A DNA stretch of 64,000 nucleotides from Octopus vulgaris (Eukaryota): contig OX597817.1 of assembly GCA_951406725.2 (NCBI GenBank), positions 48,484,001-48,548,000 of the forward strand, in the 5' to 3' direction. Shown here piece after piece: positions 23,643 through 62,779 of the stretch. Under the pieces are notes generated by a model. That model worked only from the letters and a program-made list of their open reading frames with translations. It did not search any database and had not been told where the DNA came from. Each line of letters starts with the position of its first letter. Positions within the stretch are counted from its first letter, which is position 1. Both the position numbers and the translations under genes were made by a program.

Positions 23643-24190
23643 TGTTTTAGCCCGAAGGCCGCGGCCATGCTGGGGCACCACCGCTGAATGAGCTACACTA
23701 GTTTGTGAATCCACCTCTGATACGTAGCACTTGATCAACAAGGGAGTTCGATGCTGCTGCCCGCATTCGTGTCTCCTGTCGTGAGGTAGGTTCATCTGGG
23801 ACTCCCAACAAGAAGAGATCCAGTTTAGTTTTAAAGAAACCCACATCCACACCATGTAAGTCTCTCAGGCATTTAGGGAGGATGTTAAAGAGCTGTGGTC
23901 ATCTGAAACCCAAGCTGTTGCAGTATCTGGACCTGTATTTTGATGGTGATGTTGGAATCCTTGGCACCACGCAGCGGCGCCCCGTTCTGCGGTTGGAGTA
24001 ACTTTGAATGCCAAAGTTTGGGACAAGACCCTCCAGGATTTTCCAGATGTATATCACTGCATATCTCTCCCGCCTCCGCTCCAGGGAGAAGAGGTTTAAT
24101 ACCTTCAGTCTTTCCCAGTAGCTGACATTTTGCATTGAGACGATTTTCTTTGTGTAGCTTCTCTGAATTGCTTCGAGTTCTGCTGTTTGT
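23643..24190 (-). mobile_element. CR1/L2-clade LINE 3' end (ORF2 C-terminus plus 3' tail)
   Basis: SYWERLKVLNLFSLERRRERYAVIYIWKILEGLVPN...FKTKLDLFLLGVPDEP; tail ggtgccccagcatggccgcggccttcgggctaaaaca. Confidence 0.85.
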
Positions 24191-24640: not shown

Positions 24641-24894
24641 AATGGTTACCCAATTACCTAGTTGTCTACATTCCAATGGAAGAACCCGTTTCTCTGCCTT
24701 ACAAAACAGGTTCTTTCCCTGTTACGTAAAATTTTAATTAGAAAAACAGATTACTTTCACAGATACATGCGTACGTATTTGTACATGCATACATACATAT
24801 ATACATATACGTATGTATACTTTCGGAAAATAATGTACGTATATATATATATATGCATACATACACACATTTATATATGTATATATATACATTT

Positions 24895-24964
<70 letters not shown>

Positions 24965-25097
24965 TCAATATCGGTGGCTTATATTTATTTGCTGCCGATA
25001 AATTTGGCGCGAGTGCGACGATTTGAAAATTTTAGGTCAGATATTGCCGAGGTAGCAAGAGGAATGCCTCGTGAAAAATATCTGTTCCGACTTGGCT

Positions 25098-25204
25098 ATT
25101 TCTTACTGATGAGTCTAAGGGCCTATGGTGGATTGGCTTGATTTAATTTAATCAGGTTAGTTTACCATTAAACGGTAGATGAAACGGTGCATCGTCTAAG
25201 AAAT
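25098..25204 (+). ncRNA. Type I hammerhead ribozyme, 491-bp unit 1
   Basis: Stem I atttctta/taagaaat; CTGATGA at 25106-25112; stem II gtcta/tagat with a long hairpin insert; GAAA; stem III ACGG-TGCA-TCGT; GUC cleavage triplet at 25194-25196. Confidence 0.9.
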
Positions 25205-25588
25205 TACAGGGTAAAAGTTTTTCAATTTTCTCCTGGTTTACGGAATTAATGTTATTTTGCGGTTAAAGCTTTTGGCTGTTATTTCTAGTGGGTGAATGGC
25301 CTATTATGGCCGTTCCTTGATTGTGATGTTGAACGTAAAAATGGTTTATGACTATTTAATTTTTTCCTACTAGGCCGCTGGTGGCAAAAGAATTCTACAA
25401 AATTTTTTTTGCCACCATATATTGATTAATTATGAATTTTCTGGTTAGTTCCGTAATGGAATCGGTGGCTTATATTTATTTGCTGCCGATAAATTTGGCG
25501 CGAGTGCGACGATTTGAAAATTTTAGGTCAGATATTGCCGAGGTAGCAAGAGGAATGCCTCGTGAAAAATATCTGTTCCGACTTGGCT

Positions 25589-25695
25589 ATTTCTTACTGA
25601 TGAGTCTAAGGGCCTATGGTGGATTGGCTTGATTTAATTTAATCAGGTTAGTTTACCATTAAACGGTAGATGAAACGGTGCATCGTCTAAGAAAT
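25589..25695 (+). ncRNA. Type I hammerhead ribozyme, 491-bp unit 2
   Basis: Same motif as 25098-25204. Confidence 0.9.
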
Positions 25696-26079
25696 TACAG
25701 GGTAAAAGTTTTTCAATTTTCTCCTGGTTTACGGAATTAATGTTATTTTGCGGTTAAAGCTTTTGGCTGTTATTTCTAGTGGGTGAATGGCCTATTATGG
25801 CCGTTCCTTGATTGTGATGTTGAACGTAAAAATGGTTTATGACTATTTAATTTTTTCCTACTAGGCCGCTGGTGGCAAAAGAATTCTACAAAATTTTTTT
25901 TGCCACCCTATATTGATTAATTATGAATTTTCTGGTTAGTTCCGTAATGGAATCGGTGGCTTATATTTATTTGCTGCCGATAAATTTGGCGCGAGTGCGA
26001 CGATTTGAAAATTTTAGGTCAGATATTGCCGAGGTAGCAAGAGGAATGCCTCGTGAAAAATATCTGTTCCGACTTGGCT

Positions 26080-26186
26080 ATTTCTTACTGATGAGTCTAA
26101 GGGCCTATGGTGGATTGGCTTGATTTAATTTAATCAGGTTAGTTTACCATTAAACGGTAGATGAAACGGTGCATCGTCTAAGAAAT
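26080..26186 (+). ncRNA. Type I hammerhead ribozyme, 491-bp unit 3
   Basis: Same motif as 25098-25204. Confidence 0.9.
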
Positions 26187-26569
26187 TACAGGGTAAAAGT
26201 TTTTCAATTTTCTCCTGGTTTACGGAATTAATGTTATTTTGCGGTTAAAGCTTTTGGCTGTTATTTCTAGTGGGTGAATGGCCTATTATGGCCGTTCCTT
26301 GATTGTGATGTTGAACGTAAAAATGGTTTATGACTATTTAATTTTTTCCTACTAGGCCGCTGGTGGCAAAAGAATTCTACAAAATTTTTTTGCCACCCTA
26401 TATTGATTAATTATGAATTTTCTGGTTAGTTCCGTAATGGAATCGGTGGCTTATATTTATTTGCTGCCGATAAATTTGGCGCGAGTGCGACGATTTGAAA
26501 ATTTTAGGTCAGATATTGCCGAGGTAGCAAGAGGAATGCCTCGTGAAAAATATCTGTTCCGACTTGGCT

Positions 26570-26676
26570 ATTTCTTACTGATGAGTCTAAGGGCCTATGG
26601 TGGATTGGCTTGATTTAATTTAATCAGGTTAGTTTACCATTAAACGGTAGATGAAACGGTGCATCGTCTAAGAAAT
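26570..26676 (+). ncRNA. Type I hammerhead ribozyme, 491-bp unit 4
   Basis: Same motif as 25098-25204. Confidence 0.9.
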
Positions 26677-26794
26677 TACAGGGTAAAAGTTTTTCAATTT
26701 TCTCCTGGTTTACGGAATTAATGTTATTTTGCGGTTAAAGCTTTTGGCTGTTATTTCTAGTGGGTGAATGGCCTATTATGGCCGTTCCTTGATT

Positions 26795-26834
<40 letters not shown>

Positions 26835-42130: not shown

Positions 42131-42162
<32 letters not shown>

Positions 42163-42687
42163 TTGTAAAAAATGAAGTTCGAAAATGCTGCTGTATTATA
42201 CAATTTTTAATTTTTATATATACATTATAACATGTTTCAGTTCCTGAAATGAACTTTATCAAAAAAAGTTATATATAAAAAAAGACAGCTCATGCCGTCA
42301 AACACAAGAAATTCATTTATAATACACAACGGAGTCAGACATCTTAGAGTTCATGTATAGTTGATATATAGTTCATGTATAGTTGATATATAGTTTGAAG
42401 TATATGTTCAAAGTGTTCGATGCAGTGGCCCACGGTGGCGATACGTATTCAATACAAAAAACAGATCAAAGTGGTGGAAAGCGGTCAATACAGAAGATTG
42501 ATGTTTCCGAAAGAGCGAGGAATTCATTTTTACCTTAAGCAAATGTGATGACCCATGGTGGATGTTCGCTGGGTGGTTCTAATGAGTTTTTGTGAAGTGC
42601 TCGGTTTTATAATGCCTGTTAGGTGGTCAATCCAGTGTAGCGTGACGTCATCAACGTTTTGACCAATCGTTTCGTTAGGTGGCTTTA

Positions 42688-42900
42688 GTCAAGTAGAACG
42701 GGACGTCATCATTATTTTGACCAATCGCTGCATTATAACTGCCTCTTGTTTGTTTCCTGTTTTGACCAGTCGCTTCGTTAGTCAAGTAGAACGGGACGTC
42801 ATCATTATTTTGACCAATCGCTGCATTATAACTGCCTCTTGTTTGTTTCCTGTTTTGACCAGTCGCTTCGTTAATCAAGCAGAACGGGACGTCATGCAGA
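42688..42900 (+). repeat. 93-bp minisatellite (~2.3 units) rich in GACGTCA and CCAAT
   Basis: Units start at 42688, 42781 and 42874. Confidence 0.85.
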
Positions 42901-43247
42901 TTCTGCCCAATCACGACTTATAGCTACATTAGATCTGCCCCCTGTCTGTACTTGTTAGGCGACTATTCAAGCAGAAAAGGACGTCATCAATATTCTGACT
43001 AATGACTGTCCCCTGTTTGTATCCTGTCCATTCTAGCTGAGCTAGACGTCATATATATATATATAGATATGTGAGCGTGTGTATATGGGGGTGTATATCC
43101 TCTTTTATATTTGTTTTTATATTTATTTATTTTTATATATATGTGTGTAGATATATGTGTGTATGTATGAGTATGGGTATGGGTGTGTACGTAGATGTAT
43201 GTAAATGGGGGCATATGTACATGTGTATATGGATGTATGTGTATGTA

Positions 43248-43300
<53 letters not shown>

Positions 43301-43522
43301 GTGTATGTATATATATATATATGTGTGTGTGTGTATGTATGTGTGTGTGTATATGTATATATATATATACCAATTAAGGACTGAACACGAAAAGTGGACA
43401 GTCAACATGCTAGATATAGACGTCAAATCGTCATTCTCCACAAAAGATTATGTTCTCAGATCAAACTCAACACAAAACCATAGCAATAAACAAGTGAAAA
43501 ATATACGAAATAAAATAATTAC

Positions 43523-43587
43523 CCATGTACTAACTTAGTTTCAGCTGTTATTTTCCGCAAGGAAAACTGCAGCCATCATCAGCATGG
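43523..43587 (-). ncRNA. Type I hammerhead ribozyme (copies also at 44028-44092, 44533-44597 and 45038-45102)
   Basis: Reverse complement of the 45403-45467 motif. Confidence 0.85.
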
Positions 43588-45402
43588 TCCGTTATAAATG
43601 TAATTTGCTGGACTAAATGCAAACACGATACCGAAATATCGCGTGCATGGAGTTCAGCCTATTACATTTGAATATATCTTTCAAATGCCTTTACTTTGGC
43701 GCGTTGAGACCCGAGAAAACTAGCCTGCAGCTAATAATTAGCAGCAGTTAATTTATCGGTTAGAGAACATTTATTTATATAAAATTAATTAAGGGTAGAA
43801 ATTGATATTTATCAATTAAGACCAGTGGTCTAGCATATTAAAAAAGAATCCGAAGATTAAAATATTTATATATACCAATTAAGGACTGAACACGAAAAGT
43901 GGACAGTCAACATGCTAGATATAGACGTCAAATCGTCATTCTCCACAAAAGATTATGTTCTCAGATCAAACTCAACACAAAACCATAGCAATAAACAAGT
44001 GAAAAATATACGAAATAAAATAATTACCCATGTACTAACTTAGTTTCAGCTGTTATTTTCCGCAAGGAAAACTGCAGCCATCATCAGCATGGTCCGTTAT
44101 AAATGTAATTTGCTGGACTAAATGCAAACACGATACCGAAATATCGCGTGCATGGAGTTCAGCCTATTACATTTGAATATATCTTTCAAATGCCTTTACT
44201 TTGGCGCGTTGAGACCCGAGAAAACTAGCCTGCAGCTAATAATTAGCAGCAGTTAATTTATCGGTTAGAGAACATTTATTTATATAAAATTAATTAAGGG
44301 TAGAAAGTGATATTTATCAATTAAGACCAGTGGTCTAGCATATTAAAAAAGAATCCGAAGATTAAAATATTTATATATACCAATTAAGGACTGAACACGA
44401 AAAGTGGACAGTCAACATGCTAGATATAGACGTCAAATCGTCATTCTCCACAAAAGATTATGTTCTCAGATCAAACTCAACACAAAACCATAGCAATAAA
44501 CAAGTGAAAAATATACGAAATAAAATAATTACCCATGTACTAACTTAGTTTCAGCTGTTATTTTCCGCAAGGAAAACTGCAGCCATCATCAGCATGGTCC
44601 GTTATAAATGTAATTTGCTGGACTAAATGCAAACACGATACCGAAATATCGCGTGCATGGAGTTCAGCCTATTACATTTGAATATATCTTTCAAATGCCT
44701 TTACTTTGGCGCGTTGAGACCCGAGAAAACTAGCCTGCAGCTAATAATTAGCAGCAGTTAATTTATCGGTTAGAGAACATTTATTTATATAAAATTAATT
44801 AAGGGTAGAAATTGATATTTATCAATTAAGACCAGTGGTCTAGCATATTAAAAAAGAATCCGAAGATTAAAATATTTATATATACCAATTAAGGACTGAA
44901 CACGAAAAGTGGACAGTCAACATGCTAGATATAGACGTCAAATCGTCATTCTCCACAAAAGATTATGTTCTCAGATCAAACTCAACACAAAACCATAGCA
45001 ATAAACAAGTGAAAAATATACGAAATAAAATAATTACCCATGTACTAACTTAGTTTCAGCTGTTATTTTCCGCAAGGAAAACTGCAGCCATCATCAGCAT
45101 GGTCCGTTATAAATGTAATTTGCTGGACTAAATGCAAACACGATACCGAAATATCGCGTGCATGGAGTTCAGCCTATTACATTTGAATATATCTTTCAAA
45201 TGCCTTTACTTTGGCGCGTTGAGACCTGCAGCTAATAATTAGCAGCAGTTAATTATTAGCTGCAGGCTAGTTTTCTCGGGTCTCAACGCGCCAAAGTAAA
45301 GGCATTTGAAAGATATATTCAAATGTAATAGGCTGAACTCCATGCACGCGATATTTCGGTATCGTGTTTGCATTTAGTCCAGCAAATTACATTTATAACG
45401 GA

Positions 45403-45467
45403 CCATGCTGATGATGGCTGCAGTTTTCCTTGCGGAAAATAACAGCTGAAACTAAGTTAGTACATGG
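45403..45467 (+). ncRNA. Type I hammerhead ribozyme (copies also at 45908-45972 and 46412-46476)
   Basis: Stem I ccatg/catgg; CTGATGA plus an extra T; stem II ggctg/cagct enclosing ttttcc-ttgc-ggaaaa; GAAA; stem III ACTA-AGT-TAGT; GUA triplet at 45460-45462. Confidence 0.85.
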
Positions 45468-46928
45468 GTAATTATTTTATTTCGTATATTTTTCACTTGT
45501 TTATTGCTATGGTTTTGTGTTGAGTTTGATCTGAGAACATAATCTTTTGTGGAGAATGACGATTTGACGTCTATATCTAGCATGTTGACTGTCCACTTTT
45601 CGTGTTCAGTCCTTAATTGGTATATATAAATATTTTAATCTTCGGATTCTTTTTTAATATGCTAGACCACTGGTCTTAATTGATAAATATCAATTTCTAC
45701 CCTTAATTAATTTTATATAAATAAATTTTCTGTAACCGATAAATTAACTGCTGCTAATTATTAGCTGCAGGCTAGTTTTCTCGGGTCTCAACGCGCCAAA
45801 GTAAAGGCATTTGAAAGATATATTCAAATGTAATAGGCTGAACTCCATGCACGCGATATTTCGGTATCGTGTTTGCATTTAGTCCAGCAAATTACATTTA
45901 TAACGGACCATGCTGATGATGGCTGCAGTTTTCCTTGCGGAAAATAACAGCTGAAACTAAGTTAGTACATGGGTAATTATTTTATTTCGTATATTTTTCA
46001 CTTGTTTATTGCTATGGTTTTGTGTTGAGTTTGATCTGAGAACATAATCTTTTGTGGAGAATGACGATTTGACGTCTATATCTAGCATGTTGACTGTCCA
46101 CTTTTCGTGTTCAGTCCTTAATTGGTATATATAAATATTTTAATCTTCGGATTCTTTTTAATATGCTAGACCACTGGTCTTAATTGATAAATATCAATTT
46201 CTACCCTTAATTAATTTTATATAAATAAATTTTCTGTAACCGATAAATTAACTGCTGCTAATTATTAGCTGCAGGCTAGTTTTCTCGGGTCTCAACGCGC
46301 CAAAGTAAAGGCATTTGAAAGATATATTCAAATGTAATAGGCTGAACTCCATGCACGCGATATTTCGGTATCGTGTTTGCATTTAGTCCAGCAAATTACA
46401 TTTATAACGGACCATGCTGATGATGGCTGCAGTTTTCCTTGCGGAAAATAACAGCTGAAACTAAGTTAGTACATGGGTAATTATTTTATTTCGTATATTT
46501 TTCACTTGTTTATTGCTATGGTTTTGTGTTGAGTTTGATCTGAGAACATAATCTTTTGTGGAGAATGACGATTTGACGTCTATATCTAGCATGTTGACTG
46601 TCCACTTTTCGTGTTCAGTCCTTAATTGGTATATATAAATATTTTAATCTTCGGATTCTTTTTTAATATGCTAGACCACTGGTCTTAATTGATAAATATC
46701 AATTTCTACCCTTAATTAATTTTATATAAATTTTGTATATATATATATGTATAAGTGAGAGTCTCCTTATTTACCTAAACTCTATTATTCAATTTATTCT
46801 TTTATCTACTTTATCACTGATTCCCCTAAGAATGATAGTTTGCGCCATGCCTACCCCCAAAAAGTCCCCCACCACCACCCCTTTAAACCTGCCTAAATGT
46901 ATAAATGCCAAAACTATTCTTGTCACCT

Positions 46929-60843: not shown

Positions 60844-61810
60844 GTATATCATATATATTATATATATATACATATATACGACAAGCTTCTTTCAGTTTCT
60901 GTCTATCAAATCCGCTCACAAGGCTTTGGTCGGCCCGAGGCTACAGTAGAAGATACTTGGCCAAGGTGCCACGCAGTGGGACTGAACCCGGAACCAAGTG
61001 GCTAGTAAGCAAGCTACTTACCACACAGCCACTCCTGCGCAACCTTTAAAACTGTTCTGAAAATGGCGATATGACATTATTTCAGCTATGAGAATAGGTG
61101 AGAAAAAAAATTCAATTTAGATGTTTTCTGATGTTATTTGCATATTATGTTTTTTCTACTACCCGAAATTTTGGCGGAGGAGTGGGAGAAGTCGATTAAA
61201 TCGACCCCAGTACGCAACAGGTAATTAATTTATCGACCCGAAAGGATGAAAGGCAATGTTGACCTCGACGGAATCTGAACTCAGAACGTAAAGACAGACG
61301 AAATGCCGCTAAGCATTTTGCCTGGCGTTCCGACATTCTTGCCACCTCACCGCCTTATTTTATTTGTAGTAATATTATTTAGCAGGGTTTAAATTTTCTA
61401 TTTTCAGATAGCTTGAAGATATAGCTCTGTTGTGTTGCTTCCATTTTGCAGTCTGAGGCTCATCAGGTACACCCATAGATAAAGTTGTGTCTCACTAAAG
61501 ATCTTGCGTACCGACTGCCATGTTGTTATATGGCCGTCTAAATAGTATCAATAGGTGGGGATTAGAAATAGTGAACCACTTAGACACACAATATAACTGA
61601 ACCTTATGCATCAAGAAAACCTCGGATAGGCGCAGGACTGGCTGTGTGGTAAGTAGCTTGCTTACCAACCACATAGTTCCGGGTTCAGTCCCACTGCGTG
61701 GCACCTTGGGCATGTGCCTTCTAATATAGCCTCGGGCAGACCAAAGCCTTGTGAGTGGATTTGGTAGACGGAAATGGAAAGAAGCCTGTCGTATATATGT
61801 ATGTATGTAT

Positions 61811-62709
61811 TTCCGTTTTGCATATGTGAATTACAGGGTTTGTCGTGCCCGGAGTCCCACTTTGATAGAAATAAGCATTCTTGACTGCTATTTCTATTTT
61901 TTCGGTATGCGGTCAAGCAACCTGTTGCTTGTCCCTTTTTCTTATATACAATATATATACTGAACTTTACAGAAGTTCCTGCCGGTAATCGGCTATATTT
62001 ACATACCGAATTCTACCAGTAAATAATTGTGGTTTTTTTAAAAACCTTTATAGAAATTATTTACTCTTATTATTATATTACTAATTGGATTTTTCACTCC
62101 CTTACGACAACCAAATGGTTCCTACTCATATGGAACTATTTTTGTAGTGCGCATGGCAAAATTTTGGAGGGAAGATTTACGAATTCAAACGTCTATGTAG
62201 GTTTAGCCTTTGCTCACTTTCTTCAAATATTTTGATGTCGCATGGTCAGAAGGTTTGAGGTACGTAGCATTTGATAAATCTATGATAAATCTATTTCAAT
62301 GGAAAGCTGTGCTGAAGAAGGATGTGAAATATATATGCAATGTATATGAAATATATATCAAAAATATATATGAAATATATATTCAATATGTTTATAATCC
62401 AGAAACATGATGTTCACAGATAACCACCAGCCTTCGTTTTCGTTATCTATCCCTTCCGTTTTGCATATGTGAATTACAGGGTTTGTCGTGCCCGGAGTCC
62501 CACTTTGATAGAAATAAGCATTCTTGACTGCTATTTCTATTTTTTCGGTATGCGGTCAAGCAACCTGTTGCTTGTCCCTTTTTCTTATATACAATATATA
62601 TACTGAACTTTACAGAAGTTCCTGCCGGTAATCGGCTATATTTACATACCGAATTCTACCAGTAAATAATTGTGGTTTTTTTAAAAACCTTTATAGAAAT
62701 TATTTACTC

Positions 62710-62719
<10 letters not shown>
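61811..62719 (+). repeat. Direct duplication of ~266 bp (61811-62076 vs 62454-62719)
   Basis: Near-identical copies 643 bp apart. Confidence 0.9.

Positions 62720-62779
<60 letters not shown>

Follow-up and report, generated by a model that had tools for sequence, protein, structure and literature searches.

The question raised by this locus is how an array of self-cleaving repeats came to lie in a microsatellite of Octopus vulgaris. Within a stretch of 64,000 nucleotides (the window), an earlier note had recognized a non-coding tandem array with one hammerhead ribozyme per unit, inserted in (AT)n, and had interpreted it as the multimeric cDNA of a circular RNA, that is, as a retrozyme. Here, we ask what kind of element this is, how its copies are inserted, which template they were copied from, and which enzyme may move them.

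The window carries a tandem array of hammerhead units

TRF placed a tandem array at 24970-26799 (+), 1,830 nt long, with a period of 491, 3.7 copies and 99% matches. The monomers measure 491, 491 and 490 nt, and the units differ by one substitution in the first and one T-run deletion in the third. The motif positions (CTGATGA at 25106, 25597, 26088 and 26578; GAAAC...GTC at 25181, 25672, 26163 and 26653) together with TRF confirmed that four near-identical type I hammerheads are present at 491/491/490-nt spacing, and the intact CUGAUGA/GAAA/GUC core and the 8-bp stem I were found in the sequence as described. A generic type I hammerhead scan on both strands of the whole window gave four matches, all of them in this array; the scan is too strict for a second family with 505-nt units, in which the core is followed by an additional U. 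As claimed before, the array is non-coding and sits between AT runs on both sides: the unit has no ORF, the longest ATG frame on the 491-nt circle being 66 aa. Its GC content is about 0.37-0.39, and units occur solely head to tail, without an LTR arrangement. The + strand of the predicted 491-nt circle folds more stably than 40 shuffles (z = -4.7), and the minus strand gave z = -2.8.

The extent originally assigned to the array (24957-26799) stands for 24970-26799 but not for 24957-24971. The latter is a minus-strand, inverted copy of unit positions 223-237, counted from the base after the predicted cut; it lies outside the tandem and shares a 2-nt overlap with the plus-strand arm. All features are collected in Table 1. 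Upstream of the array, the window also contains a broken reading frame at about 23780-24190 (-), which we take to resemble the C-terminal end of a LINE ORF2.

Table 1 Features of the retrozyme insertions and their flanks in the window
Feature	Position	Strand	Basis or remark
Left TA-rich/(AT)n target run	24840-24956	.	TRF TA array 24840-24959 and sequence
Inverted stub arm, unit 223-237, terminating at the long (+237) end	24957-24971	-	Reverse complement of the +237 end found at 33 outer ends elsewhere
Main arm: unit 265-491, three full monomers, then 1-131 (short end)	24970-26799	+	TRF, sequence, locus parse
Type I hammerhead 1, predicted cut after 25196 (GUC)	25098-25204	+	
Predicted monomer, cut to cut, 491 nt	25197-25687	+	Sequence; circular fold
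106-nt tail between the fixed ends, unit 132-237 (first full unit); terminal 14-bp hairpin and CCCTATATTG form the long-end module	25328-25433	+	
Type I hammerhead 2, predicted cut after 25687	25589-25695	+	
Type I hammerhead 3, predicted cut after 26178	26080-26186	+	
Type I hammerhead 4, predicted cut after 26668	26570-26676	+	
Short-end module at the array end: TGGCTGTTATTTCTA, hairpin, CCTTGATTG, then (AT)n junction; outline common to other families	26742-26799	+	
Right (AT)n target run	26800-26831	.	TRF
Family B insertion, 505-nt unit, GUA site, seven hammerheads; arms 43357-45254 (-) and 45237-46731 (+)	43357-46731	.	

The array is one insertion of a young dispersed family

In a BLAST search of the genome (2.8 Gb in 227 contigs), the 491-nt unit matched many contigs at 97-100% identity. 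An exact 24-mer of the window-subfamily core occurred 422 times and its reversed control not once, so that the array is not a product of chance. A 26-mer spanning the GUC cut was found 956 times, and a 20-mer with another base at the cut 1,693 times, this base being A in all of the 100 occurrences listed. Since the two sets are disjoint, the family comprises at least 2,649 units in GUC and non-GUC forms. The array is a genuine tandem and one insertion of this young dispersed family, and the retrozyme architecture proposed earlier finds its counterpart in tandem hammerhead units and dispersed copies in these numbers. For the analyses below we parsed 66 loci with 113 arms, chosen as the top BLAST matches plus, on three contigs, the first occurrences of the exact core; this sample leans towards young copies.

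The hammerhead appears built to act as a dimer

The Rfam model Hammerhead_1 (RF00163) was matched end to end (positions 1-45) at 22 bits (E = 0.031; three matches listed), whereas at the gathering threshold, 34 bits for this model, Rfam gave zero matches in the window. The Rfam scan that the earlier note had called for thus succeeded in recovering the full model and fell short in score, because stem II carries a 68-nt, mostly paired extension; this lowers library membership and leaves the fold unaffected. Weak Rfam miRNA matches elsewhere in the window are generic hairpins. Stem II opens with a G.U pair instead of the usual G10.1-C11.1, and this atypical pair may lower activity.

As a monomer, stem III can form 4 bp (A-U, C-G, G-C and G.U) around a UGCA loop. 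The 12-nt stem III segment is entirely self-complementary, with a predicted energy of -17.5 kcal/mol for the dimer versus -0.2 kcal/mol for the hairpin, and the best monomer fold pairs off the core and lies 3.9 kcal/mol below the hammerhead fold. Thus, on sequence evidence, both the predicted cut positions (Table 1) and the dimer-competent stem III with its palindromic loop hold.

A sister subfamily, 90% identical to that of the window, carries hammerhead changes at N7, at N17 (GUC to GUA), in stem II (G.U to A-U and A-U to G-C) and at further positions of the stem II loop and extension. Its loop 3 has changed from UGCA to UAUA, with UACA as intermediate, keeping the palindrome, and its 12-nt stem III segment is self-complementary as well (dimer -13.6 kcal/mol, hairpin -0.2 kcal/mol). 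The sister changes therefore appear confined to tolerated or compensated positions, the compensatory ones stemming from essentially one subfamily split. Preferential conservation of the core, which the earlier note had expected, did not emerge by count: 0 of 64 lineage-fixed changes fell into the 13 core positions versus 1.7 expected, a difference that is not significant, with two of the 13 positions biased by the unit delimiter. We dropped this count as evidence.

Copies end at two fixed points and begin at random

Three loci interrupted by a gap or by the limit of the retrieved sequence were set aside. Of the 102 outer ends counted, 98 fell on two points, about +131 and +237 after the cut. 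The short end accounts for 45 (positions 128-141, 33 exactly at 131) and the long end for 53 (232-241, 33 exactly at 237); four ends lie elsewhere. The inner (5') ends of the 113 arms, in contrast, are spread evenly along the unit (chi-square p = 0.50). The circularly permuted start points anticipated earlier are hence real for the inner ends and do not extend to the outer ones. (AT)n runs adjoin 94 of 106 outer ends, and most flanks consist of (AT)n, in which a target-site duplication (more than 4 bp in retrozymes, when present) cannot be read.

Divergent arms with one short and one long end make up 35 loci; a single arm is found in 24 and one odd end in four. The window copy is counted among the 24 (its stub is too short for BLAST), and it carries both fixed ends, the 15-nt inverted stub ending at +237 and the main arm at +131. 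Arms average 981 nt (median 801 nt) and reach up to 18 units. In 37 simple two-arm loci the reaches of the two arms are uncorrelated (rho -0.11); the arms are therefore not fold-back copies, and we ruled out this origin of the second arm. Short and long ends are placed left or right 18 to 17 times in these loci, two being short-short. The longest locus (L055, G000:C10:17474300-17484290) is a single 8,977-nt arm of 18 units with variants recurring in a subset of units at period 3, possibly by local duplication or from a mixed template.

Two fixed outer ends, random inner ends and AT targets are the footprint of Penelope-like elements (PLEs), and the combination of random inner with two fixed outer ends therefore points to a Penelope-like enzyme specifically. 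Two fixed 3' ends, a single-sided tail, an inverted 5'-truncated copy and an AT-rich target, as known from PLE insertions, were all found.

Variants and junctions favor a monomer circle as template

Among 155 full units in 59 loci, divergence was 0.36% within loci (344 pairs) and 0.28% between opposite arms (70 pairs), compared to 2.9% between loci. A total of 24 substitution haplotypes occurred in 33 multi-unit loci; the non-GUC subfamily is sparsely represented (5 loci with full units), and the haplotype statistics mainly describe the GUC subfamily. In 50 loci with at least three copies of a position, homopolymer and arm-edge positions left out, 73 variants were fixed in all copies, 105 occurred in a single copy and 11 in a subset. 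Nine variants were fixed in one locus and fixed in no other sampled locus, and six of them span both arms. In three two-arm loci a variant occupies the same register in both arms and is absent from some units. Such same-register and period-3 variants indicate that, at least occasionally, a multimer template, conversion between arms or local duplication is at work. The cut site is read through seamlessly, with 235 intact junctions and three arms with a shortfall. Unit homogeneity and locus-private variants favor a single monomer template, and the simplest reading is one covalently closed monomer copied repeatedly from both start sites. That the array is the multimeric cDNA of a circle is thus backed by variant sharing within loci, which falls short of proof. 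We rejected the 491-to-1 joint as evidence for a circle or for transcription: of 23 sequencing runs, 20 contain part of the unit and none is recorded as RNA, and contigs of four of these runs (their kind is a guess) cover the unit and show the joint, which tandem DNA has too.

Taken together, we consider it probable that the array is a non-autonomous non-LTR retrozyme that was moved by a PLE and copied from a monomer circle. An uncleaved linear multimer transcript could instead be the template of a PLE passenger, its hammerhead being dispensable for insertion and serving RNA end formation, stability or the like. In the only purified PLE, which mainly used unprocessed RNA as substrate, insertion was normal with hammerhead mutants (Frangieh et al. 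2024, PMC11167929), and seamless junctions and the absent stop at the cut site fit this template equally. The same-register variants in both arms of three loci also speak for it, and a homogeneous parent array would yield homogeneous daughters. Yet random 5' truncation would shorten such arrays in each round, and arms of 5-18 units are still 97-100% identical to the window unit. The ratio of 73 fixed to 11 subset variants, like the 24 haplotypes in 33 loci, would require repeated passage through one unit and re-expansion, and the hammerhead has been retained with compensatory changes. We regard a linear multimer template as unlikely.

If reverse transcriptase (RT) copied cleaved linear monomers instead and, on reaching a 5' end, jumped to a 3' end, be it that of the same molecule or of another, no covalent circle would be needed. 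This would agree with an excess of sampled arms starting at 490-2 (5 of 113 versus 0.9 expected, p = 0.002; one locus has both arms at +1), and the mixed variants in the 18-mer could reflect a template pool. However, one of the five arms was an alignment artefact on inspection, and AT-joined starts at +1 showed no genome-wide excess (3 versus 4 and 2 at control sites, small numbers), and we dropped this cut-site footprint. Template jumping usually leaves added or lost bases at junctions, as seen in work on R2, whereas the 235 junctions here are intact without either; we judge jumping to be improbable. The period-3 variants of the 18-unit locus would also suit a single insertion of a short PLE-derived unit at each locus, followed by minisatellite expansion of the DNA on site, and local amplification is the route favored by Li et al. 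2026 (bioRxiv 10.64898/2026.07.22.740005). Both divergent arms are, however, often multi-unit with common private variants, outer ends lie exactly on the two start sites, arm lengths resemble random truncation (mean 981 nt, median 801 nt), and subset variants are rare (11 of 189), which makes such an expansion very improbable.

Unrelated repeat families share the end module

The window contains a second insertion (Table 1), whose family (family B) has no significant similarity to the 491-nt family (family A) and was missed by TRF because its period exceeds 500. Family B arms end about 163-171 and 254-264 after the cut, the same two ends recur at many loci, and the genome holds at least 224 matches (from 38 scored of 1,516 candidates). 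At the right flank of one locus (L042), only a short AT run separates the end of a family B arm from the short end of a family A arm, a stacked insertion into one microsatellite.

Each fixed end consists of a hairpin and then a CCTT-like motif. CCTT(A/G)ATT(A/G) stands directly before the junction at the family A short end and at both family B ends, while the family A long end has a looser version; the motif is usually located 3' of the hairpin. The CCTT pattern followed by (AT)8 occurred 2,466 times on the forward strand versus 162 times for a control (on the reverse strand, repeated matches inflate the counts). The 22 distinct loci obtained with this pattern comprise two of family A, seven of family B and 13 other elements, several of which have TG(A/G)CTG(C/T)TATTTCTA upstream in common. 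Complete hammerheads were detected by scan in L198 and L204 and by eye in L206, and none of the 13 elements gave a PLE protein match. L198, L204, L206, L200 and L193 represent further families of about 430-590 nt with the end module, L198 with a clean GUC hammerhead and a palindromic stem III. A partial tandem at about 61810-62725 (+) in the window, with 643-nt spacing, carries this short-end module too; it is similar to L200 and L198, and no clear hammerhead was recognized in it.

Candidate PLE enzymes are encoded in the genome

A GIY-YIG search of the genome yielded at least 148 matches, 16 of them in 781-codon frames. The 781-aa protein scored 28.9 bits for RVT_1, just under the cut-off, and 28 bits, over the cut-off, for a C-terminal GIY-YIG domain; no solved structure matched it. 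A CX2-5CxxC motif precedes its nuclease domain; this motif is characteristic of the Neptune/Nematis type (Craig et al. 2021, PMC8557442), and by it the element would be a PLE of that type. Its copies lie in (AT)n, with two ends about 40 nt apart and sometimes with inverted arms. In this young intact PLE (L173-L186), upstream frames as long as 479 codons overlap the 781-codon RT and GIY-YIG frame, and the scan found no hammerhead in its pLTR. A 3' fragment of this PLE (pLTR, 93-bp repeats) lies in the window at 42148-43052 (-), inside an AT run that is separated from family B by about 300 nt. tblastn with the 781-aa protein gave no match in the whole window, and the retrozyme unit lacks the RT and GIY-YIG ORF of an autonomous PLE.

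A second PLE family (L188, L227, L230, L239, L240 and L146) has ends about 30 nt apart. Its minimal hammerhead, with a palindromic GUAC and in many cases the core CCGAAGA, is located about 137 nt ahead of the short end. A third clade has a 665-aa frame (L243). One more GIY-YIG match (L160) resembles an exon of a cellular SLX1-type nuclease, not a transposon. The 76 GIY-YIG loci compared, a small fraction of the first-look candidates (6,136 and 5,551), included no autonomous PLE with a matching 3' end. The 781-aa family, the minimal-hammerhead family, smaller families and the L243 clade share neither the end signature nor similarity with families A and B, and we rejected them as partner.

Discussion

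Animal non-LTR retrozymes, as described by Cervera & de la Pena 2020 (PMC7229834) and by Li, Clavereau & Pollet 2026 (bioRxiv 10.64898/2026.07.22.740005), are non-coding tandem repeats without LTR arrangement, with one type I hammerhead per unit and a GC content below 50%, dispersed over many loci, with a structured predicted circle and PLEs in the same genome. Every testable feature of that class recurs in the octopus family, and the retrozyme call is sequence-based. At 491 nt the unit is longer than the 150-450 nt of PMC7229834 and within the 51-972 bp of the 2026 preprint; it differs from the published elements in the 68-nt extension of stem II and the G.U pair that opens it. The class is not new: retrozymes have been published for molluscs (mussel, PMC7229834), and 235 Rfam hammerhead-1 loci were reported for the giant squid (PMC6962438). 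In agreement with the earlier note, a cephalopod family was not found in the literature searched, although the supplements of both key papers could hold one; nothing relevant was found in PMC10886601 and PMC5680766. Twin fixed ends, inverted arms and (AT)n targeting were likewise not found described for retrozymes in this literature, in which subscription journals are thinly covered. The useful part of our findings is the insertion footprint.

This footprint has its closest parallel in endonuclease-bearing PLEs (PMC8557442; PMC11167929), with which it has in common 5'-truncated tandem copies, an inverted 5'-truncated copy, a single-sided tail, microsatellite or AT-rich targets and two internal RT start sites. 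Experiments with a purified PLE protein showed cleavage of both strands in AT-rich DNA and reverse transcription from two sites inside the RNA, the interval between them being the tail (PMC11167929). In contrast to these PLEs, the octopus unit has no ORF and no sequence similarity to the pLTRs examined, and its tail is 106 nt long (family B has about 90 nt and the L198 family about 100 nt), which exceeds the 30-40 nt found in the papers and in the autonomous PLEs of this genome. Non-autonomous Chlamys PLEs such as MRC1 (PMC8557442) resemble it as non-coding passengers with multicopy head-to-tail insertions; they generally match an autonomous family at the 3' end, whereas no such match was found here.

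The hammerhead resembles metazoan hammerheads that act as dimers (Cervera & de la Pena 2014, PMC4209133; axolotl HHR_Amex1/2, PMC7229834) in its weak helix III and palindromic loop, and in a tandem context, in which a double hammerhead can form while the circular monomer would stay silent. Compared with these ribozymes, the octopus one has a longer helix III (up to 4 bp in the monomer and a 12-bp duplex in the dimer); its stem I of 8 bp and its stem II also exceed the canonical 6 and 4 bp. The self-complementary stem III and the core-paired monomer predicted here would fit the published idea of a ribozyme that cuts in the multimer and is quiet in the circle (PMC4209133). Of nine Xenopus retrozyme dimers, one cleaved in vitro (bioRxiv 10.64898/2026.07.22.740005).

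PLE-driven rolling reverse transcription of a circle was hypothesized in the retrozyme papers (PMC7229834), and our preferred reading, a PLE-moved retrozyme copied from a monomer circle, would proceed as follows. The + strand of a tandem locus would be transcribed, and adjacent hammerheads would cut at GUC, as their structure suggests most likely as a double hammerhead formed via the self-complementary stem III. The 491-nt monomer would then be ligated to a circle, as proposed in PMC7229834, and this circle would be stable because a lone monomer prefers the core-paired fold by about 4 kcal/mol. A putative PLE protein with RT and GIY-YIG domains would cut both strands of an (AT)n run, and reverse transcription would start on each DNA end, at +131 and +237, 106 nt apart. 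Each RT would roll around the same monomer, as the variant sharing suggests, and stop at a random point, whereupon the two cDNAs would be joined head to head or one would be lost. The window copy, with its single arm of 1,830 nt and its 15-nt stub, would have arisen in this way. The retrozyme is a selfish element, and no host function is implied.

More tentatively, and as something close to an even call, the arrays may be direct genomic records of two-ended rolling-circle reverse transcription. A Penelope-like enzyme acting as a dimer would use either end of a cut (AT)n run for priming, and the start sites would be two hairpin-CCTT modules that lie about 100 nt from each other on a single, covalently closed hammerhead RNA. 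At least five families of 430-640-nt units, unrelated in the rest of their sequence, would then form a radiation that shares the end module and depends on a PLE lineage with an unusually long tail, yet to be found.

The way in which animal retrozymes move is still hypothetical: PMC7229834 proposed that PLEs copy the circles, the 2026 preprint leans towards local amplification, and the purified PLE needed no hammerhead. The octopus family offers exact predicted RT starts (+131 and +237), an (AT)n target and a candidate dimer-dependent ribozyme with natural compensatory variants. Its thousands of near-identical units carry variants that can serve to barcode the template, and the genome itself encodes intact candidate enzymes. 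With this family, the choice between circular and linear template and the origin of the tandem and inverted structures of PLEs become directly testable.
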